The notes under the pieces are model-generated. The model saw only the letters and a list, made by a program, of their open reading frames with translations. It was not told the origin of the DNA and did not search any database. Shown one piece after another: positions 6,682 through 54,700 of a stretch of 64,000 bases of DNA. Within the stretch, counting starts at the first letter, position 1. Every line of letters begins with the position of its first letter. A program made the translations under genes and the position numbers. This DNA comes from Chitinophagales bacterium (lineage in GTDB: Bacteria; Bacteroidota; Bacteroidia; Chitinophagales; JANQFB01): contig JANQFB010000055.1 in assembly GCA_028278085.1 (NCBI GenBank), forward strand, positions 3,806-67,805, given 5' to 3'.

Positions 6682-7040
6682 AAGGCAAATTTTTTAGTTA
6701 ATTAATACAATTAACACTTCATTGCCTGGGGTCACTTGGTTGTTGTTTGTTCTAAAAGCCCGGAGCTATAAGCTCATTTCGCATAATCAGATAGACATTA
6801 CTCAGGCTTTTAAGGTGGGTAGATTATTGATAATGTCTATTAGACTTTAACTAAAATAAGTCATCAGGTAAGCAATTCCAAATAAAAATCACCAATCCCG
6901 GGAAAATGGATGTTTCTACTTATGGAAATACTTAGAACCTCGTAGGCAAAACAACCATACTAAATCCCTAAGAGATTTTCCAAGGATGAAAAAACCTATA
7001 TGATTTGATTAAAATGCGGGAAATAAAGGCGAGAGCGTTG

Positions 7041-9209: not shown

Positions 9210-9298
9210 AATCCAATAGTTTATATATACCTTAAAAATAGCTTATCTAAGGCATTTTAACAAATATTTTTCCGTTTAACGGGGTGTGCCGGAAGGCT

Positions 9299-14112: not shown

Positions 14113-14118
14113 CGGCTT

Positions 14119-15042: not shown

Positions 15043-15064
15043 CCGTTAAAATGTCTGTTTACAT

Positions 15065-20317: not shown

Positions 20318-20338
20318 TTTAACTTTATTTATAATAAA

Positions 20339-20346
20339 TAATTTTG
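20339..20346 (+). promoter_or_regulatory. Candidate Bacteroidota -7 promoter box (TAnnTTTG)
   Basis: 'TAATTTTG' lies in the AT-rich gap upstream of the YfiR-like gene. The call rests on a motif match only. Confidence 0.3.
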
Positions 20347-20377
20347 CTTTTTTTTGTAAATTAGTTGAAAATTTGGC

Positions 20378-20968: not shown

Positions 20969-20982
20969 AACTGAAAGTTATC

Positions 20983-21870
20983 ATGAAACGAGCACTTATT
21001 CTCATATTTATATCCATCGCAGCATTGGCATCGCATGCACAAAAGGATGTGGTGAATGATGCTATCCGGCATTTGAAGAACAAATCATTGGATAGTGCCA
21101 AACTGCTGATCGACCAGGCAGTAGCACACGAAACCACCAAAGATCTTGCCACGACATGGTATTACCGCGGATTCATTTATAAAGAATTATACAAAGAGCG
21201 GGAAAAAAACGACGCTTCCTCTCAATTTCGGATCACTTCTTTTGAATCTTTCAAACACTCCTGCGAACTGGATGCTACCAATGAATCTTTCGAAAACAAT
21301 AAAAGCAACCTGGATTATTTATCAAGGGTATTCTTCAACGATGCGGTCAAAACACTGAATACCGATCAATACCCGCTTTCACTCAAAAACTTCAAACATT
21401 TTAAAGAAACCTCGAAGATCATAGATCCAAATATCGACCTCACCCAAAAAACCATCGAGTACAAAATAGGTATCGCCACCGTATATATGCAGTTGTATGA
21501 ACAGGATATGGAAAAGAACAAAGGCTTCCTGGAAAAGACCAAGGAATCTTATGAGTTTGTGCTCGACATTGATCCGGATAACATCCGTGCCAATTATAAC
21601 ATGGGTGTGTTGTATTACAACCAGGCGGTGAACATCATCCATTCCCTGGAATACGATACCGATATGATCGCCTTGAGTGAAATTCAAAATGATTGCATCA
21701 AATTATTCAAAGAATCGCTTCCTTTTATGGAACTGGCTCATAAGCTCGATCCTAATAACATAAATACATTAAAGGGTTTATCCGGTATTTACTACAGCCT
21801 GAATGAGATTGACAAATCTAATGAGCTAAAAGCTGCAATAGAGGACCTGAAAAAGAAACAACAGGATTAA
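20983..21870 (+). CDS. Secreted TPR-like repeat protein
   Basis: Signal peptide 'LILIFISIAALASHAQ' followed by helical repeats, e.g. 'ANYNMGVLYYNQA' and 'LKGLSGIYYSLNE'. Confidence 0.55.
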   Translation: MKRALILIFISIAALASHAQKDVVNDAIRHLKNKSLDSAKLLIDQAVAHETTKDLATTWYYRGFIYKELYKEREKNDASSQFRITSFESFKHSCELDATNESFENNKSNLDYLSRVFFNDAVKTLNTDQYPLSLKNFKHFKETSKIIDPNIDLTQKTIEYKIGIATVYMQLYEQDMEKNKGFLEKTKESYEFVLDIDPDNIRANYNMGVLYYNQAVNIIHSLEYDTDMIALSEIQNDCIKLFKESLPFMELAHKLDPNNINTLKGLSGIYYSLNEIDKSNELKAAIEDLKKKQQD

Positions 21871-21924
21871 GGTTTTTTCATAAAATATCCTCTGGCCAGT
21901 AGAAAAGAAGGTTTCATATCAAGG

Positions 21925-35692: not shown

Positions 35693-37201
35693 TTAAAACT
35701 TAATGCCGATGAAAGCCACATCGTCGATCTGGTTATATTCGCCTTTCCATTCTTCAAAAGACCTGTTAATGATCCGGCACTGTTCCTCCATGCTTCTATC
35801 TTTATTTTCCGCGATCAACTGTTTCAGCCGCTTACTCATAAACTTCTTATTATTAGGGCCGCCAAATTGATCGACATAACCATCCGTGAAGAGGTAAACC
35901 GCATCCCCATTACTCAGTTGGAGCGTATGATTGGTGAATTTTCGGTTAAAGTCGAATTGAGAACCTCCAATGGGAAATTTGTTGCCTTTGATCTCCAGTA
36001 ATTCCCCGTCCTTTACATAATATATCGGGCGATAGGCAGCCGCAACCTGAATTTCAAGATTATCAAGATTGATATGACAAAGCGCCACGTCCATTCCGTC
36101 TTTGGATTGAGCGCTTTTTTCATCCTGTTTCAATGTTTTAATAACACTGGCATTCAATTGGTTCAGGATCTCGGCCGGTTGAGTGATCTTCTTTTCTTTG
36201 ACAATTTCATTGAGCAGGGAATTGCCGATCACCGACATCATCGCTCCCGGAACGCCATGTCCGGTACAGTCGACCGTTGCCAATAATAATTGGTGCTTAT
36301 TTTTATCCAATGATGAATAGGTCAGGCTATTGAACCAATAAAAGTCTCCGCTGACCACATCCTTGGGTTTATAAAGAATAAATGCATCGGGTAAAAATTG
36401 GTAGATCTCATCATGCTCCGGTACCAACGCCTGCTGGATCCGGCTGGCATAATTGATACTATCGGTAATATGCTTGTTCTTGGCTTCTATGATCCGGTTG
36501 GATTCCTCCAGCGCCAGTTTGGAAGCTTCTTCCTGCGCCAGCAGGCTCTTTATCAGGCGGAACAGGAAAAAACCGACCACTAAAAATATGGCCAGTGTAA
36601 TGCCTATATTTCTCCAAAGTTCCTGCCTGGCGCGCTGGATAAATTCATCAAAAGGTTCATCGACCTCGATCACGGCGGTAACATTCCCATGCCTGTCTTT
36701 GACCGGCGCCACCGCCGAAAGCCAACTGCCATGTTCATCTTCAAAAGCCGGCAAAACCCCACCGGATTGGTAGATCCCCGGCAGCTCCTTGGGAAAGGTA
36801 CTGTACTCATGCCTGTAATAAGGATTTTCGGCCGAGGTTACCCCAAAACAATAATTTTGCCTATCGGCTTGCCAGGTAAGGGTATAGATCGGCGATTTTA
36901 ACCCGTTCAGGGTATAAGCTTCCAATAATATATCGTGTATGGCCTGGTAATCGGGATCATCCGAATTTTTTTTGATGGCATCTTTCTCCGGATACCTTGT
37001 TAATAATCCCATTAACTGATCACCGTCGATCTGCATGGATAAGGTGGAACTGATACTATGTAAGCGTGCCAGCAGATCAGCTTCCGAATTTCTGAGGAAA
37101 CTGAAATAGGACGACACGATAAAATAAACGGACAGCAGCAATAATGCTCCGAATACCGTTACCAGCAATCTTCCGGTGATATTTTTAACAATACTGGACA
37201 T
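35693..37201 (-). CDS. Membrane sensor PP2C/SpoIIE protein phosphatase
   Basis: TM, an extracytoplasmic domain of about 160 aa, a second TM, then a coiled coil. SpoIIE motifs are 'SGDFYWFNS' and 'VDCTGHGVPGAMMSVIG'. The C-terminal half is paralogous to 21925..24162. Confidence 0.8.
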   Translation of the reverse strand: MSSIVKNITGRLLVTVFGALLLLSVYFIVSSYFSFLRNSEADLLARLHSISSTLSMQIDGDQLMGLLTRYPEKDAIKKNSDDPDYQAIHDILLEAYTLNGLKSPIYTLTWQADRQNYCFGVTSAENPYYRHEYSTFPKELPGIYQSGGVLPAFEDEHGSWLSAVAPVKDRHGNVTAVIEVDEPFDEFIQRARQELWRNIGITLAIFLVVGFFLFRLIKSLLAQEEASKLALEESNRIIEAKNKHITDSINYASRIQQALVPEHDEIYQFLPDAFILYKPKDVVSGDFYWFNSLTYSSLDKNKHQLLLATVDCTGHGVPGAMMSVIGNSLLNEIVKEKKITQPAEILNQLNASVIKTLKQDEKSAQSKDGMDVALCHINLDNLEIQVAAAYRPIYYVKDGELLEIKGNKFPIGGSQFDFNRKFTNHTLQLSNGDAVYLFTDGYVDQFGGPNNKKFMSKRLKQLIAENKDRSMEEQCRIINRSFEEWKGEYNQIDDVAFIGIKF

Positions 37202-39000: not shown

Positions 39001-39008
39001 TAATTTTG
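39001..39008 (+). promoter_or_regulatory. Candidate -7 promoter box (TAnnTTTG)
   Basis: 'TAATTTTG' ends 37 nt upstream of the ATG at 39045. The call rests on a motif match only. Confidence 0.3.
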
Positions 39009-39044
39009 TAAAAACATGTAAATTGCGATCATAAATAATATTTG

Positions 39045-40466
39045 ATGATGATTTTTAAAAGATTGACGATCACCTTCCTACTTTGCTGGACCATTGCTCC
39101 TTCATTCGGAACGCATATAGTCGGCGGTGAATTTTGGTACGAATGTATCGATAGCGCCGCAAACCTATACAGAGTCTCCTTGTTGTTGTACAGGGATTGC
39201 AGCAGCCCCTTGGCAGCCGAATTCGACAATCCGGCTTACCTGGGTTTATATGATACTGCAGGAAACCTGATGAACGGGCCCATCGGAACAGATATGACGC
39301 TGCTCTCAAGGGATACCCTGCTGAATACCGTTTCCAATATTTGCAAAGCAGCGCCTCCGGGCGTCTGTGTGGAGAAAGGCCTGTATGAAGTAACGATGAT
39401 CATCGTTCCAAAGGCAGGAGGCTATCACCTGGTTTATCAGCGTTGCTGCCGGAACGACGATATCATCAATATCCCGAATCCTTTGGGAACAGGCTTCAGT
39501 TGGACGGTTCAGATCCCGGATCCCGGCATGGCCGGGTGTAATAATTCACCCGTTTTCAGTATAGTACCACCCACCCTGATATGTTTACAGGACAGCGTGA
39601 TCGTCGACTACCGGGCGGTGGATCCGGATGGAGACTCGCTTACCTATGAATTATGTTCGCCAAAAGGCAGCAGTGTCATTGTGATCGACGGCAGCGTACC
39701 TGCTCCCGATCCCCTGCCTGCATTTGCAGATATGAGCTATATCCAGCCCTATACTTTCAATAATCCCCTGGACCCTCAACCGGGCAACCTTGTCGTCGAC
39801 CAGGGGATGATCCGGGGAATTGCGAATATTTCCGGGCAATTTGTTACAGGCATTTGTGTAAAAGAATATCGAAATGGCAATCTATTATCCACCTATATCC
39901 GGGATTTCAATTTCAATGTAGCGAATTGCCTGGATACAACACCGGTGGCGGATTTCATGGCCAGCACGGATACGGCCTGTATCGGTGATTCCATTCGATT
40001 CGAGGTGATCTCCCCCCTGGGCCCGGCGGTAAAATATACCTGGAATTTCGGCGATGCCGGTGGAACTTCAACCGAACAAACGCCCGTATATGCCTATCAG
40101 CAGGCTGGAGATTTTGATGTGAGCCTCAGCGTAAGCCAGGGGCCGGCCTGCTCCGCCGATACCCTCAAACAATGGTTTATACATATCGCCGACTGTGCTG
40201 CTTCAGGTATTTCGGATACCCAGGATGTTCCAACCATCCTGGTTTCTCCTAATCCGTTTAAAGACCGCTTTCTCCTGGAATGGTCATCCATCAGGCCGGA
40301 GATCTTACAAATTTTCGATATACAAGGGCAAATGGTCAAACAGATCCGCCTCAACACCACTAACCGTCAGCAAATTATGGTTGAAGATCTTCCTCCGGGG
40401 TGCTATATATACCGCCTGAATTCATCAAATTCCAGGCCGGCTTACGGGAAATTGGTGAGGTACTAG
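39045..40466 (+). CDS. Secreted Cys-rich passenger-domain + PKD protein with T9SS type-A sorting domain
   Basis: Signal peptide ending 'SFGTH'. The domain 'IVGGEFWYECID...LLLYRDC...QRCCRNDDIINIPNPLGTG' is shared with the next gene. PKD motif 'YTWNFGDAGG'. The tail is 'VSPNPFKDRF...IFDIQGQMV...GCYIYRL'. Confidence 0.8.
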   Translation: MMIFKRLTITFLLCWTIAPSFGTHIVGGEFWYECIDSAANLYRVSLLLYRDCSSPLAAEFDNPAYLGLYDTAGNLMNGPIGTDMTLLSRDTLLNTVSNICKAAPPGVCVEKGLYEVTMIIVPKAGGYHLVYQRCCRNDDIINIPNPLGTGFSWTVQIPDPGMAGCNNSPVFSIVPPTLICLQDSVIVDYRAVDPDGDSLTYELCSPKGSSVIVIDGSVPAPDPLPAFADMSYIQPYTFNNPLDPQPGNLVVDQGMIRGIANISGQFVTGICVKEYRNGNLLSTYIRDFNFNVANCLDTTPVADFMASTDTACIGDSIRFEVISPLGPAVKYTWNFGDAGGTSTEQTPVYAYQQAGDFDVSLSVSQGPACSADTLKQWFIHIADCAASGISDTQDVPTILVSPNPFKDRFLLEWSSIRPEILQIFDIQGQMVKQIRLNTTNRQQIMVEDLPPGCYIYRLNSSNSRPAYGKLVRY

Positions 40467-40616
40467 TATTCTCCTACGCTTCAGGGCGATTTGGGCATTT
40501 TCGGATAATTAGCGAAAAACGGACTCCAAATATCCTGAAATAGCCGTGTTTCTTGCCTTATGGCATGGTTTTCTAAATTATTTTTTATAAATTGCCTGTC
40601 ATAAATTCTTTGGCAG

Positions 40617-42578
40617 ATGGCTGGCTTATATCGTCCGATTATTGTATGCCTGGTATATTGGGTATTGATGGGTGCCCAGCCTGCTTTTGGTACGCATGTG
40701 ATTGGTGGAGAGTTGTATTACGAATGTGTCGACCCTAACAATCATTTTTATCGCATTACCTTATTGCTTTACCGGGATTGTACGAATTCCTCCAATGCGG
40801 AGTTCGACGACCCTGCATACCTGGGTATTTATGATGATGCCGGGAACCTGATCAACGGGCCCATCGGTACGGATCTCCCGCTGATCAGCAGGGATACCTT
40901 ACCCAATGAAACCTACCAACTTTGCCTCTTTTCTCCCCCCAATGTTTGTGTGGAAGAAGGCTTATACGAACAAACCATCCAGATGCCTCCGCTTCCCGGG
41001 GGCGGTTCTTATACCCTGGTGTTTCAAAGATGTTGCCGGAACGATGATATTGTAAACATCCCCAATCCCCTGGGTACCGGCGCCAGTTGGGAGATCCAGG
41101 TACCGGACCCCAGTGTGGCCGATTGTAACAGCTCTGCTTCTTATAACATTTTCCCACCGACGATCATTTGCCTGAATGAAGAGATCGTTTTCGACCATTC
41201 CGCAAGCGATCCCGACGGTGACTCCCTGGCCTATAAGCTTTGCAACCCTCACCTGAGCAGCCTTGTAGTGGTCGACGGTAGCGTCCCCTCCCCGGATCCG
41301 AAACCGAATTTTGGAAATGTTCCCTATAATTCGGGATTCTCCTTTCAAAATCCCCTGGGAGGAACCGGACCTACGCAATTGCAGATCGACCCGGTAACAG
41401 GCGCATTATCCGGCAGGCCTCAATTCCCGGGGCAGTTTGTGGTCGGTATTTGTGTGGAAGAATGGCGGGACGGCCAGTTGCTGACTACCAATCGAAGGGA
41501 TTTTCAGTTTAACGTGGCCCTTTGTGATACGGACCTGACCGCGGTCTTCGACTGGTCGATGGATACCTGCTCGAATACCCTGACCTTTACCAATGAAAGT
41601 ACAAGGGGCACCACCTACTTCTGGGATTTTGGCGTGGATACTTCCACCATGGATACCAGTTCGGCGGAACATACCTCCTACCAGTTCAAGGAAATCGGTA
41701 CGTATAATGTTCTGTTCATCGTAAATCCTGCCACCAAATGCGTGGATACCATGCAGCAAACCATTGTCATTTCCGATCCACCGCTAATTGTGGATTTTAC
41801 CTTTAATGATGTCTGCCTGGGAGATACCACCTTTTTTGCCGATAGTTCTTCCAGCGGCAGCGGCAGCGGTAGTATCAATTCCTGGTATTGGGAATATGGT
41901 GACGGTACCACGCATAACGGCCCCAACCCGCCTTCCCATGTTTACGAAGATACGGGCTCCTATCCCCTGTTGCTGGCCATTACCACCGACAGGGCCTGCA
42001 CCGATACCGCCAGGGGGGGAGGTTTCCTGGTGAATGTATTCCCGATCCCGACCGTCGACGCCGGATCCGATCAGACCATTATGATCGGCGACAGCATCTT
42101 GCTGATGCCCAGCTCCGGCTTTGCATCCTACTTGTGGGATCCTGCGGAAAGCCTGAGTGATTCCTCCCTGGAATCTCCGTATGCCAGTCCTACGGTTACG
42201 ACCAGCTACAACCTGAATGCCCTCGACCATAACAATTGCCCGGCATCCGACCAGGTATCCATTGAAGTGCTGGTGCCTGCTACCATCGATGTACCGACGG
42301 CATTTACGCCCAATAACGATGCCCTGAACGATATCTTTTTTGTGTATGACCTGCTCGGTTTCCAGGGAGCAGGCTTGTCAGAATTCGATCTGAAGATCTT
42401 TAACCGCTGGGGAGAGCTTGTTTTTGAATCCGATAACATCAATACGGGTTGGGACGGTAATCATATTCGAAACGGAAAGCCTTCCGATATCGGTGTTTAT
42501 GTGTGGATGGTTAGCGGTACCAAGGTAACCGGAGAGAAAATTGATCCGATTTACGGCAATGTTTCCCTGATCCGGTGA
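40617..42578 (+). CDS. Secreted Cys-rich passenger-domain + 2 PKD protein with T9SS type-B sorting domain (gliding motility-associated C-terminal domain)
   Basis: The N-terminal domain is the same as in 39045..40466 ('GTHVIGGELYYECVD...LLLYRDC...QRCCRNDDIVNIPNPLGTG'). PKD motifs are 'YFWDFG' and 'WYWEYGDG'. The tail is 'PTAFTPNNDALNDIFFV...IFNRWGELVFES...GWDG...GVYVWMV'. Confidence 0.85.
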   Translation: MAGLYRPIIVCLVYWVLMGAQPAFGTHVIGGELYYECVDPNNHFYRITLLLYRDCTNSSNAEFDDPAYLGIYDDAGNLINGPIGTDLPLISRDTLPNETYQLCLFSPPNVCVEEGLYEQTIQMPPLPGGGSYTLVFQRCCRNDDIVNIPNPLGTGASWEIQVPDPSVADCNSSASYNIFPPTIICLNEEIVFDHSASDPDGDSLAYKLCNPHLSSLVVVDGSVPSPDPKPNFGNVPYNSGFSFQNPLGGTGPTQLQIDPVTGALSGRPQFPGQFVVGICVEEWRDGQLLTTNRRDFQFNVALCDTDLTAVFDWSMDTCSNTLTFTNESTRGTTYFWDFGVDTSTMDTSSAEHTSYQFKEIGTYNVLFIVNPATKCVDTMQQTIVISDPPLIVDFTFNDVCLGDTTFFADSSSSGSGSGSINSWYWEYGDGTTHNGPNPPSHVYEDTGSYPLLLAITTDRACTDTARGGGFLVNVFPIPTVDAGSDQTIMIGDSILLMPSSGFASYLWDPAESLSDSSLESPYASPTVTTSYNLNALDHNNCPASDQVSIEVLVPATIDVPTAFTPNNDALNDIFFVYDLLGFQGAGLSEFDLKIFNRWGELVFESDNINTGWDGNHIRNGKPSDIGVYVWMVSGTKVTGEKIDPIYGNVSLIR

Positions 42579-42655: not shown

Positions 42656-43723
42656 ATGAAACTATATCTACCCTTAAAACGACCCATAATCCTATTTACC
42701 CTGGTTATGGCGGGACTTATCCTTATTAGTCCGGAAATGAAGGCGCAGGACATTCATTTTTCGCAGTTTTATAATTCCCCGCTAACGCTCAATCCGGCCA
42801 TGACCGGTAATTTCGACGGTACCTACCGGTTAGCCGGCAACTACCGTAGACAATGGGCAAGTATACATCCGAACACGCCCTTTGAAACCTTTGCCGCATC
42901 CGTGGATATGGAGATCCCCAATAACCTGATCAAATCCGGTAAAATAGCCTGGGGCTTACAATTTTTCAATGATCAATCCGGTTTGAGCAATTTGACCAAT
43001 CAATCGATATTCGGTTCGTTGGCCTATCACCATGCCATCAATAAAGATCATGTGGTAAGCATTGGTTTCCAGGGTGGGCTGGTCAATAAACGGATCGATT
43101 ATTCCCGCTTAACTTTCAACAACCAATTCGATGGTCAGATCTTTAGCAGCGACCTTCCTCATGGCGAAAGCGGAATGAACGAATCCATGTCTTATATGGA
43201 TTTTCAGGCCGGACTGGGATGGACATCCGTGCTCAATGAAAAACTTTCGGCATTCGGTGGCATAGCCATGTTCCACCTCACGCAACCCAATGAAAGCTTC
43301 CTGAATCAAACCGACAATCCCCTGGAATCGCGGCTTGCCGTACACGCAGGCACCCAATATAAAGTGAACGAAAAAGTCGGTGTGGTGCCCAGTGTCATTT
43401 TCATGAGTCAGCGTAAAGCCCAGGAGATCAACCTTGGCGCCTCTGCTACCTATGAGTTGCAGGAAGGAAAACTTTCGCAGGCTGTCCTTTATTTCGGATC
43501 CTGGTTCCGGATGTCTGCGGGTAATTCTATTATCGATGCCGCCATACCTACCACCGGCTTGCAATACAAAAACTGGAAGCTCGGCCTGAGTTATGACGTC
43601 AATATTTCTTCCCTTAACGAGGCATCCACCTATAGAGGAGGGCCTGAGATCTCGCTAATATATATCGGCAACCTGAGCAAACCTTTGCCGATCAACCCGG
43701 TTTTACCCTGCATCAGGTATTAA
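42656..43723 (+). CDS. T9SS membrane protein, PorP/SprF family
   Basis: Contains 'AQDIHFSQFYNSPLTLNPAMTGNFDGTYRLAGNYRRQW'. Confidence 0.85.
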   Translation: MKLYLPLKRPIILFTLVMAGLILISPEMKAQDIHFSQFYNSPLTLNPAMTGNFDGTYRLAGNYRRQWASIHPNTPFETFAASVDMEIPNNLIKSGKIAWGLQFFNDQSGLSNLTNQSIFGSLAYHHAINKDHVVSIGFQGGLVNKRIDYSRLTFNNQFDGQIFSSDLPHGESGMNESMSYMDFQAGLGWTSVLNEKLSAFGGIAMFHLTQPNESFLNQTDNPLESRLAVHAGTQYKVNEKVGVVPSVIFMSQRKAQEINLGASATYELQEGKLSQAVLYFGSWFRMSAGNSIIDAAIPTTGLQYKNWKLGLSYDVNISSLNEASTYRGGPEISLIYIGNLSKPLPINPVLPCIRY

Positions 43724-43816: not shown

Positions 43817-45880
43817 ATGAGATTACTATTGTGCAGTTGTTTGCTGATGATACTCTTCGGGTGTAAATCCCAGAAAGGAGCGGGAGATAAGGAATATTCA
43901 CCCAAGCAAAACTTGAAATTCGCAGATCAGTTGTTCAATATGGGCAGCTACTATAATGCCATCGACTACTATGCCAAAGTCCATGAAAGTACGCCCGACA
44001 ACCCGCATGTTGCCTGGCAATTGGCGGAATCCTATTTTTTATCCCGGGATTATGTAAAGGCAGAAGAATGGTATAAAAAAACCATGGACCAGGCCGCGGC
44101 AAAATATCCGCTGGTCGGCTTCAAGTATGCCCAGGCCCAAAAGATGAACGGCAAATATGCCGAAGCCAAAAAATCCTTTACCAACTTTATCAAAACCTAT
44201 AAGCAGTCGGATGCCCAGAATTACAAGAAGATCGTAAGGGTCGAAAAAGAAGGCTGCGATTATGCCCTGGAAGCTCAAAAAAGCCCGGCTAATATCAAAA
44301 TGATCCACATGGACGAAAACATCAATGCGGCTTATACCGAATTCGCTCCGATGCCCATGGGTGATGATAAATTCTTCTATGCTACCCTGTATTCCGATTC
44401 CGTGATCGAGCTCGACGGAAAAAAGAATGTCAAACATTTCAGCAGGATCTTCCAGCTCGACCGGAATGGCGGTGAATATACCAACAAACAAAAATTGCCG
44501 CCGGCTATCAATGATAATAACTATCATACCGGCAACGGTACTTTTTCCTTTAACGGCAGCAAATATTATTTCACCAAATGCCAGCAGACCGAAACCGGTA
44601 AGGTAAATTGTGAGATCTATGTAACCAATTACAAAAAGGGTGATTGGGGTACCCCGGAAAAACTGGAGTTCAACATCAATATGGAGGGCTACACCAGTAC
44701 ACACCCAACGATCGGGCCCTATAAAAGAGGCGGGCAGGTGCTTTATTTCGTGTCTGACCGGCCGGGAGGTGTCGGAGGAATGGATATATGGTACTCGGTT
44801 ATTTCCCGCAACGGTAAAAAATACGGCGAGCCGCAAAATGCAGGCCGGAAGATCAATTCCCTGAGGGATGATATCACGCCTTATTTCGATAACAAATCCA
44901 AAACCTTTTATTTCAGCTCTAACGGCCGTGTCGGTATGGGCGGCTATGATATTTTCAGAACCGAAGGGATGATGAAAAAATGGACCAAGCCGGAAAATAT
45001 GGGTCCTCCTTTGAACACAAGGGTCGACGATATGTATTTCGTACCGGAGAAAAGCGGGCAGGGTGGTTACCTGGTATCCAACCGTCCGGGTTCCATTGCC
45101 TTGAAAAGCCCGACCTGCTGCGACGACATTTACCGGTTTGAATACCGCAATGTGATCAACGTTGCCGTTCAGGGTTATGTGTATGACGAAAGCGATCCCT
45201 CCAAAACGCCCATCAACGACGCCACCGTTTCGCTATATATCGCCAATTCGGAAGATGAAAGCGGAGAGCCCCTGGCGATCGCCTCGGAAATTACCAAAGA
45301 CGGCAACATGTATTTTTTCGACCTGAATCCTAACAAAGAATACAAATTAAGCGCCGCGAAAAAAGGATATTTCTCCGGTAAAAGCCTGTTCACCGATTAT
45401 GAAGGTGTCAGTACCATGGGCATTACACGCTCGGATACCTTCCGTGTCGATCTTTTCCTGAAAAAAATGGAATTGAATGTTGCTTACCGGCTTCAAAACA
45501 TCTATTATGATTTCGATAAAGCCACGCTGCGGCCGGAATCCATCAAGACCTTGGATTCCCTGTTGATCTTACTCCGTGAGCATCCTGCCATAAAGATCGA
45601 ATTGGGCTCCCATACCGATAGTAAAGGCAGTAATGAATACAACATCCAGCTTTCTCAAAAACGGGCGGAAAGTGTGGTGAAGTTCCTGATCAAAAACAAG
45701 ATATCACCGGAACGCCTGGTTCCCAAAGGTTATGGTGAAGAAGTGGCCATTGCCCCGAATTCCAATCCCGATGGATCGGACAACCCTGAAGGCAGACAAT
45801 TGAACCGAAGAACGGAATTTAAGATCATCGGAGAACTGGAAAATGTCAAATACATGGAACCCGGAGAGGAAGAATATTAA
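43817..45880 (+). CDS. PorE-like lipoprotein: TPR + TolB-like propeller + one CRD + one OmpA_C domain
   Basis: Lipobox 'ILFGC'. TPR-like helices. PD40-like runs include 'GGQVLYFVSDRPGGVGGMDIWYS' and 'KTFYFSSNGRVGMGGYDIFRT'. The CRD-like region is 'VQGYVYDES...ATVSLY'. The OmpA domain is 'LGSHTDSKGSNEYNIQLSQKRAESV...NRRTEF'. Confidence 0.8.
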   Translation: MRLLLCSCLLMILFGCKSQKGAGDKEYSPKQNLKFADQLFNMGSYYNAIDYYAKVHESTPDNPHVAWQLAESYFLSRDYVKAEEWYKKTMDQAAAKYPLVGFKYAQAQKMNGKYAEAKKSFTNFIKTYKQSDAQNYKKIVRVEKEGCDYALEAQKSPANIKMIHMDENINAAYTEFAPMPMGDDKFFYATLYSDSVIELDGKKNVKHFSRIFQLDRNGGEYTNKQKLPPAINDNNYHTGNGTFSFNGSKYYFTKCQQTETGKVNCEIYVTNYKKGDWGTPEKLEFNINMEGYTSTHPTIGPYKRGGQVLYFVSDRPGGVGGMDIWYSVISRNGKKYGEPQNAGRKINSLRDDITPYFDNKSKTFYFSSNGRVGMGGYDIFRTEGMMKKWTKPENMGPPLNTRVDDMYFVPEKSGQGGYLVSNRPGSIALKSPTCCDDIYRFEYRNVINVAVQGYVYDESDPSKTPINDATVSLYIANSEDESGEPLAIASEITKDGNMYFFDLNPNKEYKLSAAKKGYFSGKSLFTDYEGVSTMGITRSDTFRVDLFLKKMELNVAYRLQNIYYDFDKATLRPESIKTLDSLLILLREHPAIKIELGSHTDSKGSNEYNIQLSQKRAESVVKFLIKNKISPERLVPKGYGEEVAIAPNSNPDGSDNPEGRQLNRRTEFKIIGELENVKYMEPGEEEY

Positions 45881-45937: not shown

Positions 45938-48900
45938 ATGAAAAAAAATTATTACTATATCCTGATAACAGCCCTGTTCATGTTGTGTGGACAGTTTACT
46001 ATAGCACAGCAGGCCACCCTGATATTCGTGCAGGATTTTGATATTCCCCAGAATTCGGGAGCCTTCGATGTCAATTCCCCTTTAGGTATCAATAATTACG
46101 GGTCCAATGAATGGGTGATCAATTCAGAGTATGACGGACAACCGATCTATATGGATACCCCGCCACAGGATACGATTTTCGATACCATCGGAAACATTGC
46201 TTTCCCCGGCGGTAACTATATGCACATCAATGATAATACCACCTTTCCCCAGGGCGCCACGTATAACGCGGCCAATAATTCGGATCAATGGACAGTGATG
46301 AACAATGGCGGGGTTTGTACCTATGGTTACGGAGAGGTGCTGATCACTTTCTGGTACCTGAGCATCGGTTCGCCCTATGGTTTTGGTGAAGTTTATTACA
46401 GCACCGATGGAGGGGCCAACTGGAACCTGACCGTTAACCGGGATGGTGAAACGAAATATAAGGATATGGACCGGTGGAAATACACGGAAATATCGATGCC
46501 TCAATTTGTAGGGCATGGAAATTTTCTGATCGCTTTCCGATGGATCAACACCAATGCGGATACCTCCGGCGGCGGCCAAATACCCTTTGCTGTCGATGAT
46601 GTTATGCTGGTAGGGATCAACGGCGATACGACCACGCCTGACCAGCCCTCACCGGCTATTATTGCCACCAGCATGTCGCCGACACCGGTGTGCCATGAAG
46701 ATGTGAACAACCCTGACATAACCTTTGCCTTTACGGTTACCGAACCGCTTTGTGAAGGAGATTATGTTATTGAATTATCCGATTCGAGCTGTAATTGGGA
46801 CAATTCCTTTGTATTCGGGATCCTGTCGAATTTTGTCGCCACGCCCGGCAACTGGGTGGCCACCGGAACCGGATTCCTGGTACCTTCTTCCATACCTATC
46901 GGACCATGCTATTGTTACCGGATCAGCAGGATCAGCAATCCGACCTTTGTCGGTACACCAAGCACCATTTGCTGGGAGATCATTGATTGCCCGGATTCAA
47001 CAGCCATTGCGGATACTCCTGCGGTGTTGAAAGACCCGATCATGAACGGATCGGGGGCCGGAACAGGTACTACCTTTCCTACCATATGTATGAACAGTGT
47101 GATCGACGTTCCGTTTTATTCGTACGGCGCCTATAATCCTGGCAATGCCTATTGGCTGGAGCTATCGGATTCCAACGGCAACTTCCCGGCCAACCCGCCG
47201 GATACCATCGGCGGACCATCCGGACCCAATACGCAAACCTATGATCCGGCCATTTATCCCCCACCTATATCACCAGGCTCACAATCCGGCAAAATACCGG
47301 ATGATGTGCCGGAAGGATGTAATTATTATATCCGGGTCAATTCAACGGATCCGGTTATAGAAGGAGCGATATGGGGACCCTTCTGTATCGTTAATTGCGA
47401 CGTGGAAACCAACCAGGCACAGGATTTCAGTGTTTGTGTCACCGATACGGACAGTGTATGTATAGAAATACCTTACGACATCAATAAATTCGATCCCAAT
47501 ATCGTCTATGATCCGAATAACGAGTTCCTGTTCCAGGTGCTGGACAATCAAACCATGGCAGTGATCAACGAAGGGGTATTGGGGCTCGAGCTCAATACGG
47601 CCAGTGGATTAATGGAATTATGTTTCCCCCCATTCCAGCAATACCTGGCGCTGCCCATGGAACCCAAGATGTATTATGTCCGGGTGATCTCGTCGAACGG
47701 TTCGGATACAACCGATCAATGGGGCAGCCTGGTGCGGATGACGGTTACCGGCATCTCCGGCTGGCCGATCACACTTACCGGCGACCGGGATACGATCATT
47801 TGTCCGCCAAACCCGAGGAACCCGATCTGCCTGACGGTGAGCTCCAACTGGTTGTCGCCGACATCGCAATACCAGTTCGAGTTCAGTACGGGCGGTTCCT
47901 TTACCTGGCGTCCACCACCGGGAAATGCGCCACAAATACCGCCGCATCCTCCATTACCGACCATATGCTTTAATACGGATAATTTCCCCGAAGGCTGGAC
48001 CAGTGTGACCGTTCAGGAAACGGCGGGGCCCGACTGTACCGGGCCGGTTTCCAATCCTGTGCAGTTCTATATCTGGAATGCCGCCGTTACCCGTGACTTT
48101 GACGGCGACTTCGATGTGTGCCAGGGCGATACCGTGACCTATACCGCAACCTTCTTTGAAGAATCGAACGGCTGGTATCACTTCGAACAAAACGGGGGAA
48201 AAGTCGTTAACGACTATGTTCCCAATACCCAGATACGGGTGGTTTGGGATTCGATCGGTTTCGGATTCTTTGTATCGCTGACCATTATCGGCGACCAGTG
48301 TGCCGGTGACCAGTATATCCAGAAAACGGTGAATGTCCTCCCACGGACCAAAGCCGATATTTCCGGTGATACCTCGGTTTGCCATGGGGAAACCGTCAGT
48401 CTGCGGGCCAGGAACGCCACCACCCAGTTCAACAATGAATATAACTGGTTTTACCTGGATGATACCACCACTACTTTAGCTGATTCCGTTGACGGGGATA
48501 CGGTTTCCATATTGACCCTTACCCCGGATACGACAACAGACTTGTTGCTGGAAGTGATCTATTCGCCGCCCGACGGTTGTTTCGATTACGATACGTTCCA
48601 GCTTAAAGTTCATAAGGCAGATGTCGACGCCGACAGTATCGAACTATGCGAGGGTGATACCATACCGCTAGTTGGTTCCGTAAACGGAGCCGTCAGCAGT
48701 GTGCATTGGGAACCGCCGACCGACCTGCTGTACCCGGATTCCTTACAGGCCCAAACCTATACCGTCGACCCGATCACCTACAAGCTGATCGCGGAATTCG
48801 GTACCGGGTGTTCGGATACGGCAGAGATCGCCATCGATATCATCCCGACATCCTTTGATATCAGTGAAGATGATACCATCGCACCGGGACAGCAATCCTT

Positions 48901-49348
48901 CCTGGTAGCGAACGGCGGGATCGAATATTTATGGGAGCCCGGATCGAGTCTCGACTTTACCGATATTTCCAATCCAACTGCTACACCTGACTCCACCACG
49001 GAATACCAGGTAAAGATCGTGGATGCAAACGGCTGTAAACGGACACTGGACGTAACGGTCTTTGTGCTGGATCCGAATATTGTGGTACCCACAGCCTTTT
49101 CACCGAATGGAGATAAAACCAATGACATCTTCTATCCCATTTATATGGCCATCGAAGAACTTTATGAATTCAAGGTCTTCAATCGATGGGGTGAATTAGT
49201 ATTCGAAACCAATGTGATCGGTCAGGGCTGGGATGGAAAGTACAAGGGTGTACCACAGGAGATTGGAACGTATATGTTCATTATTAAAGCCAAAACCTTA
49301 CTGGATGAAGAAAGAGCCTTCGAAGGTAATGTGACCCTGATCCGGTAA
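45938..49348 (+). CDS. Large Cys-rich surface protein with T9SS type-B sorting domain
   Basis: Signal peptide, 1136 aa. The C-terminus is 'PTAFSPNGDKTNDIFYP...VFNRWGELVFET...GWDGKYKG...GTYMFII'. Confidence 0.8.
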   Translation: MKKNYYYILITALFMLCGQFTIAQQATLIFVQDFDIPQNSGAFDVNSPLGINNYGSNEWVINSEYDGQPIYMDTPPQDTIFDTIGNIAFPGGNYMHINDNTTFPQGATYNAANNSDQWTVMNNGGVCTYGYGEVLITFWYLSIGSPYGFGEVYYSTDGGANWNLTVNRDGETKYKDMDRWKYTEISMPQFVGHGNFLIAFRWINTNADTSGGGQIPFAVDDVMLVGINGDTTTPDQPSPAIIATSMSPTPVCHEDVNNPDITFAFTVTEPLCEGDYVIELSDSSCNWDNSFVFGILSNFVATPGNWVATGTGFLVPSSIPIGPCYCYRISRISNPTFVGTPSTICWEIIDCPDSTAIADTPAVLKDPIMNGSGAGTGTTFPTICMNSVIDVPFYSYGAYNPGNAYWLELSDSNGNFPANPPDTIGGPSGPNTQTYDPAIYPPPISPGSQSGKIPDDVPEGCNYYIRVNSTDPVIEGAIWGPFCIVNCDVETNQAQDFSVCVTDTDSVCIEIPYDINKFDPNIVYDPNNEFLFQVLDNQTMAVINEGVLGLELNTASGLMELCFPPFQQYLALPMEPKMYYVRVISSNGSDTTDQWGSLVRMTVTGISGWPITLTGDRDTIICPPNPRNPICLTVSSNWLSPTSQYQFEFSTGGSFTWRPPPGNAPQIPPHPPLPTICFNTDNFPEGWTSVTVQETAGPDCTGPVSNPVQFYIWNAAVTRDFDGDFDVCQGDTVTYTATFFEESNGWYHFEQNGGKVVNDYVPNTQIRVVWDSIGFGFFVSLTIIGDQCAGDQYIQKTVNVLPRTKADISGDTSVCHGETVSLRARNATTQFNNEYNWFYLDDTTTTLADSVDGDTVSILTLTPDTTTDLLLEVIYSPPDGCFDYDTFQLKVHKADVDADSIELCEGDTIPLVGSVNGAVSSVHWEPPTDLLYPDSLQAQTYTVDPITYKLIAEFGTGCSDTAEIAIDIIPTSFDISEDDTIAPGQQSFLVANGGIEYLWEPGSSLDFTDISNPTATPDSTTEYQVKIVDANGCKRTLDVTVFVLDPNIVVPTAFSPNGDKTNDIFYPIYMAIEELYEFKVFNRWGELVFETNVIGQGWDGKYKGVPQEIGTYMFIIKAKTLLDEERAFEGNVTLIR

Positions 49349-49379: not shown

Positions 49380-50432
49380 ATGTACAAACTTGAAGGTCTA
49401 GCTTTGTGTGGGAAGGTATGTTCAAGCGTGTTGCTGGCCCTGCTGGTTGGTTTGCTGATATCCGTTAAACCTGCACAAGCGCAGGATATACACTTTTCAC
49501 AATTCTATTTTTCCCCACTAACGGTAAATCCGGCACAAACCGGTTTCTTTAACGGCCGCTACCGGTTTGCCGCCAATTACCGGGATCAATGGGGATTTGT
49601 CCCCTTCCTCAAAACCTATGCCGCCAGCTTCGATGCCAAGCTGGTCAATAATCTATTCAGCTATGGTAATATCCTCGCGCTCGGGGTGTATATGTATGGC
49701 GATAATCCCGAACCGGGCCATATTGGCAGAACCGGCTTTTTTGGGTCAGCCGCCTATCATCAAACCCTGGGGGACAAAAACCACTATATTGCCGTGGGCG
49801 TACAGGGAGGGCTGCACCAGATAGGATTTGACCCCAATCTGCTGCGGTTCGGCGACCAGATCGTAAACGGCTCAACATCCTCCAATGAAGCGTTTAACAG
49901 CACCAATATTCAATTCACCGACATCGGGGCTGGAGCTTTATGGAATATCGTTCCTAATGAACGGGCCAATATTTATGCCGGCTTTTCTCTTTTTCACCTT
50001 AACAGTCCGGTCGTTAATTTTGCCAGCGGCCCGGCGAATACCCTGTCGATGAGAACAGTTATCCATGGTGGCGCCGCTATCAAATTAAATGACCAATTCG
50101 ATCTTCTGCCGGCCATCATGCTCATGAAACAAAGATCTGCCAGTGAACTAATAATGGGTGCGGCTTTACGTTACAACCTGGAAGATAATGCCGGTATAAG
50201 ATTTGGCAGTTGGTTCAGGAATTACAGAAATGCCGATGCTCTTGTTATTATGACTGCCCTCGACTATCAACGATTTATTTTTGGCCTCAGCTATGATTTC
50301 AATATCTCCTCCTTTAGCCGAGTCAGCAACGCGAGGGGTGGCTACGAAATATCGCTGATCTATACCGGCGGTGTGATCGTCGAATCCAAACGGAACCGTA
50401 ACAAAGGCCGGATCCCCTGTCCTATTTTATAA
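49380..50432 (+). CDS. T9SS membrane protein, PorP/SprF family
   Basis: Contains 'AQDIHFSQFYFSPLTVNPAQTGFFNGRYRFAANYRDQW'. It starts 31 nt after the cargo gene. Confidence 0.85.
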   Translation: MYKLEGLALCGKVCSSVLLALLVGLLISVKPAQAQDIHFSQFYFSPLTVNPAQTGFFNGRYRFAANYRDQWGFVPFLKTYAASFDAKLVNNLFSYGNILALGVYMYGDNPEPGHIGRTGFFGSAAYHQTLGDKNHYIAVGVQGGLHQIGFDPNLLRFGDQIVNGSTSSNEAFNSTNIQFTDIGAGALWNIVPNERANIYAGFSLFHLNSPVVNFASGPANTLSMRTVIHGGAAIKLNDQFDLLPAIMLMKQRSASELIMGAALRYNLEDNAGIRFGSWFRNYRNADALVIMTALDYQRFIFGLSYDFNISSFSRVSNARGGYEISLIYTGGVIVESKRNRNKGRIPCPIL

Positions 50433-50780
50433 ACTTGTGCAATCACAGAATGATGTCAATTTTGCGTTAAATCAACGTCAACTTTGAGTCATTCTTGACA
50501 TTTTCCGAGAATAAATGTGAGTTCGCGCCCAGGTTATTAGCTGTTTTAGCCTACTCAGATAGTTGCATAGCCAATAGTTTGAGGAAAACAAGAAAGTCCC
50601 AGAGAGGCAAAATTGGCAAATAACGTGAAACGTCCCTTAATCGCCAACTGGCTGTTGTTATAAACATGTTTTATCGATAAAATAACCGTATTGAACGAAT
50701 AATCAAAAGTCTATTGATTTAAAATTCAATCTCCTCTTGCACCACAATATTTATTTTATTATACTTACATATATAAATTA

Positions 50781-50798
50781 GCGAAAGTATACTTTCGC
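50781..50798. promoter_or_regulatory. Perfect 18-bp palindrome, candidate operator
   Basis: GCGAAAGTATACTTTCGC is its own reverse complement. It ends 22 nt upstream of the GTG start at 50821. Confidence 0.35.
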
Positions 50799-50820
50799 AT
50801 GTCAAAGACCTGGTAATTTC

Positions 50821-51528
50821 GTGAAAACATTTTTCATCATATTTTGTCTTTTACCTATGGTGATATTTGCACAAGAAGCAAAGTATCATCAACCACTCCG
50901 GATAGGATTATGTTTCAGTCCTGAGATCCAATATGTGACGGGAGGATATAATAAAATATATCTTATTTCTCCAAAAACAGGGATTACAGTAGGCATTAAT
51001 GGAGAAATCACCATTTCCAAACGGTTTTCCATGAGAACGGGTTTGTTTTATCGGCAAAAAAGGATCACTTATACGGAACCTGGGGGTGGAGGATTTTGGG
51101 ATGAACAAACGGGCAACAGAGTTTATGTAGATATGGATATAGATTATTCATTTGATGAATGGTTAGTCCCCATATTACTCAAGCACAATTTCCATAGTAA
51201 AAAGAATGCATTTTTTATATCCTTTGGCGGTGGAGTAGGCCTTCGAAGATTTACCTACCATCAAACACGGATTTGGTATCCTCGACGTCTTGGTGGTGTA
51301 TTTGTGGACTTAGACGATCCAAAACCACATGGTTTGTGGTCCTCAGGAAGTTTGGCTTTAATAGCGAGTTTCGGATATGAATATTCATTCTCCCGAACAT
51401 CCTTACTTTTAATAGAGCCTATGATAAAAATTCATCTGATCGAGGGAGTTCCATATGATCCTGCCTTCGATTATTCCTACACTTGGGGATTGAATATAAC
51501 TTATAATGTGGTGTTAGATCGTAACTAG
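50821..51528 (+). CDS. Putative outer-membrane beta-barrel protein
   Basis: Signal peptide 'FIIFCLLPMVIFAQE'. Alternating hydrophobic strands, Gly/Tyr-rich, with an aromatic-rich C-terminal strand 'YTWGLNITYNV'. GTG start. The gene is visibly AT-richer than its neighbours. Confidence 0.5.
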   Translation: MKTFFIIFCLLPMVIFAQEAKYHQPLRIGLCFSPEIQYVTGGYNKIYLISPKTGITVGINGEITISKRFSMRTGLFYRQKRITYTEPGGGGFWDEQTGNRVYVDMDIDYSFDEWLVPILLKHNFHSKKNAFFISFGGGVGLRRFTYHQTRIWYPRRLGGVFVDLDDPKPHGLWSSGSLALIASFGYEYSFSRTSLLLIEPMIKIHLIEGVPYDPAFDYSYTWGLNITYNVVLDRN

Positions 51529-51695
51529 TTGTGCAAGCAATTGGTCCTGGTGTCTTGATATATCTTATTGGTGTTGTGTATCAGCCTGTTAACAATTGAA
51601 ATTTTAACACCGAACATTTCTTGTTTTATTTCGGGTAGAATCATCTCGATACAGACAGACGGCCGTCCGTATAGAGGCTTTAATAATTCATCAAT

Positions 51696-51740
51696 GATCC
51701 GGAAGATTCTTCTGATCAATATAATTCGATCTTCCGGATC
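51696..51740 (-). terminator. Hairpin spanning the stop codon of the PKD/GEVED gene
   Basis: A perfect 12-bp stem, GATCCGGAAGAT (51696-51707) with ATCTTCCGGATC (51729-51740), and a 21-nt loop. No clear U-tract. Confidence 0.3.
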
Positions 51741-54700
51741 AACTGTTCTTTGCCCTGAACGATCTTAACAAGATAAATTCCCTTGGCCCAAGCCGACATA
51801 TTTACCGTGATATCGAAGCTTTCAGTGTGTTGTGATTGAAGCATGGTTTCACCCAATACATTTATCACGGAAAGTGAGATATCACCCTGGCCTTCGAACC
51901 GGTAAGAGAGGTTCAATTGACCCTGGGTAGGGTTCGGATAGATCCGGAGCTCGTTAACAGCAGCAGGGGCTCCGATCCCCGTCAGATCGGCAACTTGTAC
52001 GGCGGCTACTTTGAAATGGCTGCAGCCCTCATCATTTTCAACGGTTAACCTGACATTATAGGCGCCGGTCTCGGTATAGACATGGTCCGGGTGGACCAGG
52101 CTGGATGAATTGCCATCACCGAAATTCCAGTCGAGTTCGTCATAATCGTAGCTCTTATTTGTAAAGGATACCGGTTCGCCCACTTGTACCGGGTTGGGCG
52201 TGATCAGGAAATCGGCATAGTTGAAGGCCACCAGCACAGATTCGACCAGTGTATCGGATCCGTGGGTGTTGGTCGTTATTAAAGTAACGTCATAATGACC
52301 GGGCACGCTATACGTGTGGACCGGATGCTGCACGTTGGAGGTGGTGCTGTCTCCGAAATCCCATAACCAACTGCTGGCCTGGTTGATACTCTTATCGGTA
52401 AATTGCATTTCTCCGGTGCAATTACCGATATTTTCCGATTCAAAAGAAGTGATCGGGGGTATTTGGTTGCTGATCACGGTAACGGTATAATCTTCCACCT
52501 GTCCGTCGAAGGTAGTGGCACAGGGATCCGGTGTCATCAGCAGATCCGATGTGGAAGCCACACGCATCCGGATCGGGATATCATGTACTGTACCGCTGGG
52601 TACGGTGAAGTTCCCGTCATGATAGATGAATTTATCATCGGATGCAAGCACCAATTCGGTAACCGGATCGAAGTCCAGGCTATTATCATAATCGATCCAT
52701 ACCCTTACATTCTCATTGAGGAGCGTCCCGGTAAGTATGGAGATATCATAACTCACGCCTTCGATCAGGGTCGTTTTAGTATTGGTACAAGCCTGGTCAT
52801 AATAACCTTCCTGCATGCCATCTAATGTTACGTTATGGATCGTATTCAGGTGAACTTCGAATATCCCGACATTCGGGATCGCGTTGACTACGGCCGGCAC
52901 ACAATTGGGATCGGCGGCGCCGTAGTTGAAGTCGACATATTTATCCAGGACGATCGTATCGCAGCCATAAGGATTGCAAACGATCAGGCTTACCGTATAG
53001 CTTCCGGTATCGGGAAAGGCATAGGTATGGGAAGGATTTTCCTGGTTAGAAGTATTTCCATCCCCGAAATCCCACTCCCATGAGGTGGGGAAGTTGAAGG
53101 AATTATCGCTGAATTTGACCAGGCCACTGCAGGTATTCAGGGGTGTACCGGAAAAACCTGCTTCCGGGGGCAGCATATTTTCTTCGATGATCACACTATA
53201 ATCTTCTATCTGACCGGTCGTGATATTACCGCAAGGTGTGGGTGGTACACCGAATCCCCATTCCGACATTACGCGCATCCGAAGCAAGGTGTTGTAGGTA
53301 ACATTTTGCGGGAGCATGAGGGTACCCAGATGCGTTACCCGTTTCGGCTCACTGTCGAATACCATTTCCGCAGGATCGTCGAATACGCCATTATTATCGA
53401 AATCGATCCAGGCCCTTACATATTCGTCATAGGTCGGACCGGTAACCACCTTGATCGGCGTTGGAACGCCGGCGGTTATGGTGATAATTTGGGTGCATAC
53501 ATAATCCTGGTAACCTTCGATACCATTCCCGGAATTATGTTCGAATGTCGAATCAACCTGCACCTGGTAAATACCGGCATCGTTAAAATAACCGTTGTTC
53601 GGAATGCAGGAAGCTGCCGCCGGGCTGGCATTGGTTACTTCGATCAGGTCGGTTTTGGTCATGGTGTTCTGACCATGCTGGTTACTGGCCGTTAGCGTTA
53701 CGGTGTATACCCCTGTCGATATGTATGTATGTACCGGGTTTTGAAGATTGGAAGTATTCCCGTCCCCAAAATTCCATAGCCAGGTATCCGGAAAGTCTAC
53801 CGAGCGGTCCTCAAAATTTACGGTCAACGATCCGTTACAGGCCAGGGTATCGGAAACCGTGAAATCCGCAACCGGAGGATCGGTAATCTGTTTGACGACG
53901 ATATTATCGATATACACGCCATTACCCATATCCGGGCCGCCGTTGTCATAAGCATAACGGCAACTGGATTCGAATTTAATTTCTACCACACCGCCCACAT
54001 AAGCGGAAAGGTCCAGGTTCTGGGTGATCCAATCGCTGGTGATCCCCTGGGGTTGATAGGTATTACCGATCTGGTTACCGTCGACAGTAACCCGGAAATT
54101 GGTATAATTATCGACATACTGGTAAATGAGTTTCAGATCGAAGATCAAGCCTAAAGAGGTCGCACTCGTGGCGTCGATACACAAACTTGCCGAGGCCAGG
54201 TGCTCCGGGTTCGTGGTAAATTCATTCCCTTGACTCGGGGTGATCCAGGAGGCAAAGGTGTTGCCACCCATAGCTAATCCGTCCGGCCCGGTTTTGGCCG
54301 CAACGCTGGTAACCCTTACTTCCGACTCGGTATTTTCGATCACGATGAAATCATCCAGGTCCGATGAACCATTCGGGAATGGCTGCTGATAGGGGATCCC
54401 TAACGAACTTCTGTATTCTACGAAATCTGTTCTTACCAGGGTATCATAACCGAAGGCATTGTGTGTGATCAGGGTAACGGTGTAAGTTCCCGGTGTGGCA
54501 TAGGCATGTGTAGGATTGGCTACCGTATCGGTATTGCCATCGCCGAAATCCCACATACGCTGGTCGATATCCCCGGCGGTGAAATCCATGAAGGTAAACG
54601 TACCACTGCAACTTTCCAACTGATCCACGCCAAAGGAAGTAACCGGTGGTATGCTGGCAGGGTCGCTTTCGAAACGCATATCAGGCCGGTTAACCGTGGG

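Follow-up and report, generated by a model that had tools for sequence, protein, structure and literature searches.

Adjacent genes of a Chitinophagales bacterium carrying one head domain on two classes of type IX secretion sorting tail, in a family that points to recurrent head/tail recombination

We examined a stretch of 64,000 bp from an uncultured Chitinophagales bacterium (assembly GCA_028278085.1, contig JANQFB010000055.1, positions 3,806 to 67,805 of the forward strand), here referred to as the window, in which two neighbouring genes, here referred to as gene A (39042-40466, + strand) and gene B (40617-42578, + strand), encode predicted type IX secretion (T9SS) cargo proteins. The best explanation overall, which we hold with reasonable though not full confidence, is that they are two intact T9SS cargos which carry one head on different stalks and different sorting tails, and that the heads of this family have recombined recurrently.

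Gene A, read as an open reading frame (ORF) of 474 aa, encodes a putative signal peptide and the head, then a single PKD domain and a T9SS C-terminal domain (CTD) of type A. It starts with a TTG at 39042, ATG codons follow at 39045 and 39048, and the public gene call has 472 aa. Gene B follows in tandem on the same strand, with A upstream and a spacer of 150 bp between them; it encodes 653 aa, with a putative signal peptide, the head, two PKD domains, an Ig-like linker and a type-B T9SS CTD, and is present as a 653-aa call on the public contig and among the entries of the protein collection. The signal peptides of both proteins were assessed by eye, and that of A reads MMMIFKRLTITFLLCWTIAPSFG followed by THIVGGE, with basic, hydrophobic and small-residue regions. 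The head of A (39108..39929, + strand, aa 23-296) has two Ig-like beta-sandwich modules, conserved Cys residues and a DPDGDSL motif, and it is followed by a PKD domain (39939..40154, + strand, aa 300-371; PF18911, PKD_4, 49.5 bits) and by the type-A CTD (40242..40463, + strand, aa 401-474). The head of B (40689..41525, + strand, aa 25-303) is followed by a stalk (41526..42284, + strand) of two PKD_4 domains, of which the second spans aa 388-463, and of a linker (aa 464-556) with no Pfam match, and then by the type-B CTD (42285..42575, + strand, aa 557-653).

The CTD of A scored above the cutoffs of TIGR04183 (35.6 bits, cutoff 23) and PF18962 Por_Secre_tail (41.1 bits, cutoff 27), with the match at aa 401-465, and that of B scored above those of TIGR04131 (41.1 bits, cutoff 35) and PF13585 CHU_C (56.7 bits, cutoff 27), with the match at aa 557-634. 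Neither tail matched a model of the opposite CTD class in Pfam or NCBIfam. A previous sequence-only reading of this DNA had proposed exactly these two architectures, with one PKD domain and a type-A tail in the first gene and two PKD domains, a type-B tail and a following PorP/SprF gene in the second, and the curated profiles agree with it on every one of these parts and assign the two tails to distinct classes; a single CTD class for both, which would have refuted that reading, is not what the profiles gave.

Aligned to each other by BLASTP, A and B showed 49% identity over 387 aa (E 8e-122), and over the heads alone (A aa 23-296, B aa 25-303) the identity was 58% (159/274 positions), a similarity which, judged from the alignment, is far beyond chance. 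The shared domain directly after the signal peptide, for which the earlier reading had claimed that over half of the positions are identical, was thus recovered with a length of ~275 aa. Beyond about aa 300, on the other hand, only generic PKD similarity was found: the PKD domain of A and the first PKD domain of B showed 24-29% identity over <50 aa, and unrelated PKD domains reach 38-43%. As the PKD domain of A is not specifically related to the first of B, the shared module consists of the signal peptide and the head. A head-family profile gave 390 bits for A and 413 bits for B, which were its sole matches in the 64-kb window.

A genome scan with 12 sequences allowed at least 592 relatives of the head to be confirmed among species-representative genomes, all of them in Bacteroidota-type records (Chitinophagales, Saprospiraceae, Flavobacteriales/Cryomorphaceae and Cytophagales). 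A library-wide profile search returned 8089 matches at E <= 1e-30, but it took in PKD columns and overstates the size of the head family, and it was not used as an estimate; word-indexed homology searches, for their part, can miss close relatives, as protein B itself (P0256) was not returned despite 57% identity to the query. We collected 303 members with a full-length head, which begins at aa 20-40 in most of them. Family members span 371 to 4580 aa, with from one to dozens of PKD/Ig repeats. By Pfam, the 86 complete proteins of the comparator loci together with the two window genes comprise 79 type-B tails (CHU_C), 8 type-A tails (Por_Secre_tail) and one protein with neither. By local profiles, which were trained on Pfam-confirmed tails and checked with NCBIfam for the key comparators, the 303 members comprise 207 type-B and 28 type-A proteins, 58 tailless ones (mostly fragments) and 10 that are cut. 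One metagenomic protein of 677 aa (P0133) has two tandem head modules (aa 23-297 and 307-577) in front of a type-A tail, so the head can also duplicate within one protein.

In a neighbour-joining tree of 226 heads, those of A and B were sisters with 96/100 bootstrap support, within a 12-member subclade with support 98. As the two heads are each other's closest relatives, head/tail recombination did happen. Below, L and P numbers denote comparator loci and proteins, respectively, the suffix A or B the type of tail, and winA and winB the window genes. Parsimony on the same tree required at least 14 switches between A and B tails, five of them well supported; well-supported neighbours with different tails are L008B and L055A (100), P0059A and P0219B (100), and P0037A and L024B (96), and a mixed-tail clade of L023B, L023A, L042B and P0055A had support 93. 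The junction at which similarity ends lies directly after the head in the window pair, in L023 and in P0059/P0219, after the first PKD domain in P0037/L024, and after the second in L008/L055, where 73% identity over 442 aa falls to 22% or less. In every case it separates the CTD module from the head or the PKD stalk, and its position differs among pairs, which argues for several independent events. PKD-coding repeats stand upstream of both kinds of tail, so that a plausible route, which we infer, would be ectopic recombination within these repeats or close to them. Taken over the family, the pattern points to recurrent recombination or gene conversion between heads and tails. The earlier idea of a natural domain swap is therefore upheld as far as the sister heads go, but with at least 14 switches, and with A copies in the same island of other genomes, it does not amount to one swap that could be dated and that is confined to this pair.

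The L008 and L055 genes (L008:5887-7818, B-tailed, and L055:5917-7617, A-tailed), which come from related metagenome-assembled genomes (MAGs), form a mosaic: identity is 92% at about aa 70-150 of the head and 57-75% elsewhere, with the abrupt drop to 22% or less at about aa 465. The 92% stretch inside the first head domain may be a more recent conversion tract.

Gene B lies in an island of T9SS genes that is conserved in other genomes, and it is here that heads and neighbouring genes can be compared. In L008, L023 and L042 the island consists of a large type-B cargo, a PorP gene, a family-B gene, a second PorP gene and a PorE-like gene, with a family-A gene in convergent orientation directly past the PorE-like gene in L008 and L023. 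The window has the same island genes in rearranged order, the PorP slot next to B is filled as in the three other loci, and full-length matches of the other genes (below) support their orthology. The family-B genes of these loci share the architecture of B, with 336-341 aa after the head, and their tails ranked as the top 3 of 235 family tails against the 350-aa post-head region of B, with which they are colinear (34-39% identity over the full length). In L042 an aspartate carbamoyltransferase gene (L042:11696-12622, - strand) fills the slot which the convergent A copy occupies in L008 and L023; the A partner is thus absent from the L042 genome or lies elsewhere in it.

Within this setting, the heads follow lineage. 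Head identity was 58% between winA and winB and 46-49% between winB and the other B heads, 80% between L008B and L055A, and 58% between L008B and L023B. Counted as sites supporting grouping by lineage, by tail type and by the cross pairing, head quartets gave 42, 3 and 0 for the window versus L008/L055, 28, 6 and 2 for the window versus L023, and 29, 2 and 0 for L008/L055 versus L023. Control quartets of neighbouring paralogues from the three pairs among L008, L023 and L042 grouped by type: for the PorP paralogues, lineage was supported by 3, 1 and 5 sites, type by 62, 51 and 39, and the cross pairing by 1, 4 and 4, and for the last 200 aa of the two type-B cargos the counts were 2, 1 and 2, then 26, 20 and 22, then 2, 0 and 2. 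For L008, L023 and L042 this is, at the level of site patterns, the classical signature of head exchange between linked paralogues, by gene conversion or repeated recombination. In concerted evolution of linked surface-protein paralogues, segments group by genome, while flanks and neighbours group by orthology. In L008/L055 versus L023 the present family resembles this, as the heads group by genome and the flanks and neighbouring genes by orthology, but the exchanged unit here would be the functional head and the unexchanged one the secretion and anchoring signal, and in the window pair no recent conversion tract was found.

A grouping by lineage could also arise as a tree artefact of composition or rate, with A and B being ancient paralogues whose heads were never exchanged. 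Such an artefact would agree with the use of distance (neighbour-joining) trees only, with the long branches of the winA and L023A heads and with window control genes that gave no clear grouping. We consider it highly unlikely, since the raw site counts are lopsided (42:3:0 and 29:2:0), the grouping of neighbouring paralogues by type (62:3 and similar) excludes genome-wide convergence, the 73% identity of L008B and L055A over 442 aa ends abruptly at the tail, and long-branch effects would move A away from B.

Several points weigh against the reading of recurrent exchange and dual display. The trees are neighbour-joining only and many of their deep nodes are weak; the tail proportions given above reflect a biased sample and should not be read as estimates for a population. 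The sample is also contig-limited, several comparators are MAGs, and L023 has ambiguous bases. Control quartets of the window versus other genomes showed no clear grouping (5:6:8, 8:4:3 and 9:11:6), as the window lineage is too distant; a neighbouring oxidoreductase had no match above 65% identity, and its named matches were mostly from Saprospiraceae or Bacteroidota. The ancestry of gene A of the window is for this reason not separable from an independent origin. Gene A is placed in tandem upstream of B, unlike the convergent A genes past the PorE-like gene in L008 and L023, and its CTD has no clear orthologue. A PorP gene stands next to only 10 of 69 type-B family members, and the 64-kb window lacks PorV, PorU and the other core T9SS genes.

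For the origin of the window pair two routes come into consideration. By the comparisons above, its two heads diverged after the island had separated from the corresponding islands of other genomes. The tandem position of A argues for a new partial duplication in which a tail was captured, and the A-tailed L004, the nearest outgroup to the pair, for conversion between older A and B genes. The former route, in its simplest form, is a one-off, lineage-specific event in which the 5′ part of B was duplicated in tandem and fused to a PKD domain and an unrelated type-A CTD, with no A partner beforehand and no conversion at all. We regard it as possible, at well below even chances. It would explain the sister heads, the placement of A directly upstream of B and not convergent as in L008 and L023, and a PKD domain in A that is closer to those of many other proteins than to the first one of B. 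It would also suit the faster evolution of A (see below) and its tail: among 72 type-A tails those of the subclade are mutual best matches, except that the tail of A has ambiguous affinities and no clear one to them. On the other hand, the tail of L004 is most similar to the subclade A tails, which suggests an earlier A-tailed gene in the lineage, no close donor for the tail of A was found among the other seven of the eight type-A tails of the window, and the same island has linked A/B pairs in other genomes as well.

Both reading frames are uninterrupted and all conserved Cys residues are retained in A and in B, and both genes are intact. The nucleotide sequences of the heads show 60% identity, but third codon positions only 39%, dN is 0.37 and dS is saturated; as third positions are less conserved than the amino acids (58%), the heads have diverged over a long time under purifying selection. 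No stretch of identical DNA between them exceeds 14 nt, and a recent conversion tract is thus absent from the pair. The description of one and the same passenger accordingly applies to the shared head only loosely, at 58% identity, with saturated synonymous sites and with A changing faster. In Tajima's relative-rate test with L004 as outgroup, A had 39 and B 17 unique changes (chi-square 8.6), and two other outgroups gave similar results; A is by this test the faster-evolving copy. At the 66 family-conserved columns (at least 85% conserved among 226 heads), A keeps 56 and B keeps 60.

These last two results, the excess of unique changes in A and its departure from the consensus at 10/66 columns versus 6/66 in B, are what would be expected if A were a decaying or functionless duplicate, in which case only B would matter and there would be no dual routing. 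Such decay appears quite unlikely to us: the 474-codon frame of A is intact, with its putative signal peptide, all of the conserved Cys and a PKD domain and CTD above cutoffs; a protein that is still 58% identical at saturated synonymous sites indicates long-term purifying selection; and A-tailed family members are common in other genomes.

We also searched for signals that could drive transcription of the two genes. A motif resembling the Bacteroidota -7 promoter box, TAATTTTG (39001..39008, + strand), lies about 35-40 bp upstream of gene A, but is weak evidence, since the -7 motif had 50 matches in the window versus 43 expected and is without enrichment. The 150-bp spacer between A and B had no Bacteroidota -7 motif and no convincing terminator in motif and terminator scans, and sigma-70-type promoter scans gave matches at background level only.

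For the head, the earlier reading had been unable to name a function, and profile searches were in agreement with it: no Pfam or NCBIfam family matched even at E 10, the sole hint being He_PIG at E 0.13, and a sequence-profile search against PDB matched the PKD part only and not the head. An AlphaFold2 model of the head, made with a 78-sequence alignment, predicted two all-beta, Ig-like sandwiches with high confidence (predicted local distance difference test score, pLDDT, 92.9; predicted template modelling score 0.90), and the first domain modelled alone had a pLDDT of 90.2. Foldseek matches of this model in PDB were tandem Ig modules, with PD-L1 for the first domain; they were weak and generic (E >= 3e-3, TM <= 0.42). 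As a near-invariant His stands at the start of the head, a histidine brace as in lytic polysaccharide monooxygenases (LPMOs) was considered and rejected, because in the mature protein this His would most likely stand at position 2 and none of the fold matches was to an LPMO.

The predicted fold suggests an adhesin, and the head is most likely the distal binding domain of a fibrillar one. The latter rests on its placement right after the signal peptide, on PKD stalks of variable length and on the DPDGDSL motif, which we take to be cadherin-like. Fibrillar adhesins have a distal binding domain on a stalk of repeats. The A/B family is similar in having the head directly behind the signal peptide, a PKD/Ig repeat stalk and a C-terminal anchor, but differs in a head fold that matched no characterised adhesin domain.

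Downstream of B, the island continues with further genes, among them two that would serve its anchoring. A PorP/SprF gene (42656-43723, + strand; TIGR03519, 210.6 bits, cutoff 90.55) lies 77 bp downstream of B and is presumably its cognate shuttle or anchor. It is followed by a gene for a PorE-like protein (43817-45880, + strand) with TPR, a PD40 beta-propeller and OmpA_C, a presumed peptidoglycan anchor. We refer to the latter as PorE-like and not as PorE, since it scored under the curated cutoffs of T9SS_PorE (NF052230, 345.8 bits vs 600) and CHU_0125_OmpA (NF053607, 381.2 vs 620), though the architecture agrees; it showed 48-49% full-length identity to the syntenic genes of L008, L042 and L030. 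Next come a second type-B cargo (45938-49348, + strand; 1136 aa, TIGR04131 53.7 bits), which is colinear with the 1159-aa L042 and 1179-aa L023 proteins at 36-39% identity, and its partner, a second PorP/SprF gene (49380-50432, + strand; PF11751, 129 bits), which is most similar to the PorP genes located after the large type-B gene in other islands.

Type-A CTDs are collected by PorV and cleaved by PorU, and the cargo is linked to anionic lipopolysaccharide (LPS) or released, whereas type-B CTDs depend on a cognate PorP/SprF, stay uncleaved and attach the cargo through it (PMC10202324, a review; PMC9143113). A PorE-PorP-PG1035 complex forms independently of PorU and PorV (PMC9143113). In Flavobacterium johnsoniae, CTD swaps between SprB, RemA and AmyB redirected their passengers (Paillat et al. 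2025, PMC12618676), and in such engineered chimeras the CTD alone determines if the passenger is set free, statically anchored or put on the gliding track (PMC12618676). Cargos of the Fjoh_3952-3951-3950 type, with SprF-like and PorE-like partners, formed static foci, as expected for a complex tethered to the cell wall (PMC12618676).

By analogy, B with the genes at 42656-43723 and 43817-45880 fits the class of cargo/SprF-like/PorE-like operons, and A fits the PorV route; from the published engineered swaps and from other species we infer different surface fates for the two proteins. Both would present the same two-domain Ig-like head, probably as an adhesive tip. As in other species, PorV would take A from the translocon and the PorU sortase would remove its CTD, after which A would be fixed to anionic LPS or released, and the adjacent PorP/SprF would take B, with its CTD retained. 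Together with the PorE-like, peptidoglycan-binding protein, B would form a static, non-covalent surface complex. The head would in this way be displayed twice, once on a short stalk that is linked to LPS or shed, and once on a longer stalk fixed to a complex of outer membrane and peptidoglycan.

The Fjoh_3952-3951-3950 operon of F. johnsoniae and the PG1035-PorP-PorE complex of Porphyromonas gingivalis have the same order of type-B cargo, PorP/SprF and TPR/beta-propeller/OmpA_C protein (PMC12618676, PMC9143113). Their cargo is likewise an adhesin-like repeat protein, and the static-anchoring model would apply directly to gene B; the tail of B is of the PorE-linked (static) kind and not of the SprB kind. 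Unlike in these systems, the cargo here has a linked paralogue with the same head and a type-A tail, and the PorE-like protein scores under the NCBIfam PorE and CHU_0125 cutoffs. The SprB/RemA/AmyB chimeras likewise joined one passenger to a type-A or a type-B CTD (PMC12618676), but they are laboratory constructs, whereas here the exchange would be natural, recurrent across the family and fixed as two co-resident genes. As a handle on the role of the CTD, for which the sequence-only reading had recommended it, the window pair does illustrate that role, but it is not unique, and the swap experiment itself has been published for F. johnsoniae (PMC12618676).

Perhaps the heads are kept matched because the A and B forms cooperate, with the short, released or LPS-linked form binding, capping or bridging the long anchored one. 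This is an improbable suggestion at present, but if true, it would imply homophilic, cadherin-like contacts between heads, selection for repeated head conversion between the two routes in a conserved T9SS island, and a natural two-route display of an adhesin.

The window has an unusual density of T9SS genes, with 8 type-A-tailed ORFs, 3 type-B-tailed ORFs, three PorP/SprF genes and two PorE-like genes. Four tandem paralogues at 2167-11512 (- strand; 719, 716, 722 and 737 aa), with mutual identity of 45-66% and no Pfam match, have C-termini that match the local type-A tail profile, and look like a second expanding T9SS cargo family without a curated model. Another type-B cassette lies at 12073-20317 (+ strand), with a 679-aa cargo of 6 Big_9/cadherin-like repeats and CHU_C, a PorP/SprF gene (14119-15042) and, at its end, a 1750-aa PorE-like protein with TPR, PD40, seven CarboxypepD_reg/SdrD_B-type repeats and two OmpA domains. 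Membrane sensors with a SpoIIE-type PP2C phosphatase domain, one of them also with HAMP and PAS, are encoded at 21925-24162 (+ strand) and 35693-37201 (- strand) and flank the cargo islands. GC content dips to 0.395 at 20001-22000 and to 0.404 at 50001-52000, versus about 0.47 elsewhere, at the 3′ borders of two type-B islands.

All parts of the locus are of known kind (type-A cargo, type-B cargo, PorP/SprF and PorE-like protein), and it is already published that a cargo's destination depends on its CTD. No natural swap between A and B tails was found in the literature searched, and as far as that literature shows, three things are undescribed: a head that is naturally and repeatedly exchanged between A-type and B-type tails, linked A and B genes of a conserved island whose heads track each other, and this head family as such, for which there is no curated model. 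The findings are no surprise in principle and would be of use mainly to T9SS specialists and for annotation: a large head family without a curated model deserves a domain definition, and the orthology of T9SS cargos is not readable from the passenger alone. They also supply naturally matched pairs of A and B cargos with which the action of each route could be tested. A very widespread head is found on both addresses, has switched between them many times and, within a conserved island, tracks its partner copy within the lineage; the locus and its relatives suggest that the bacteria themselves exploit the modularity of T9SS tails, which are known to act as address labels.

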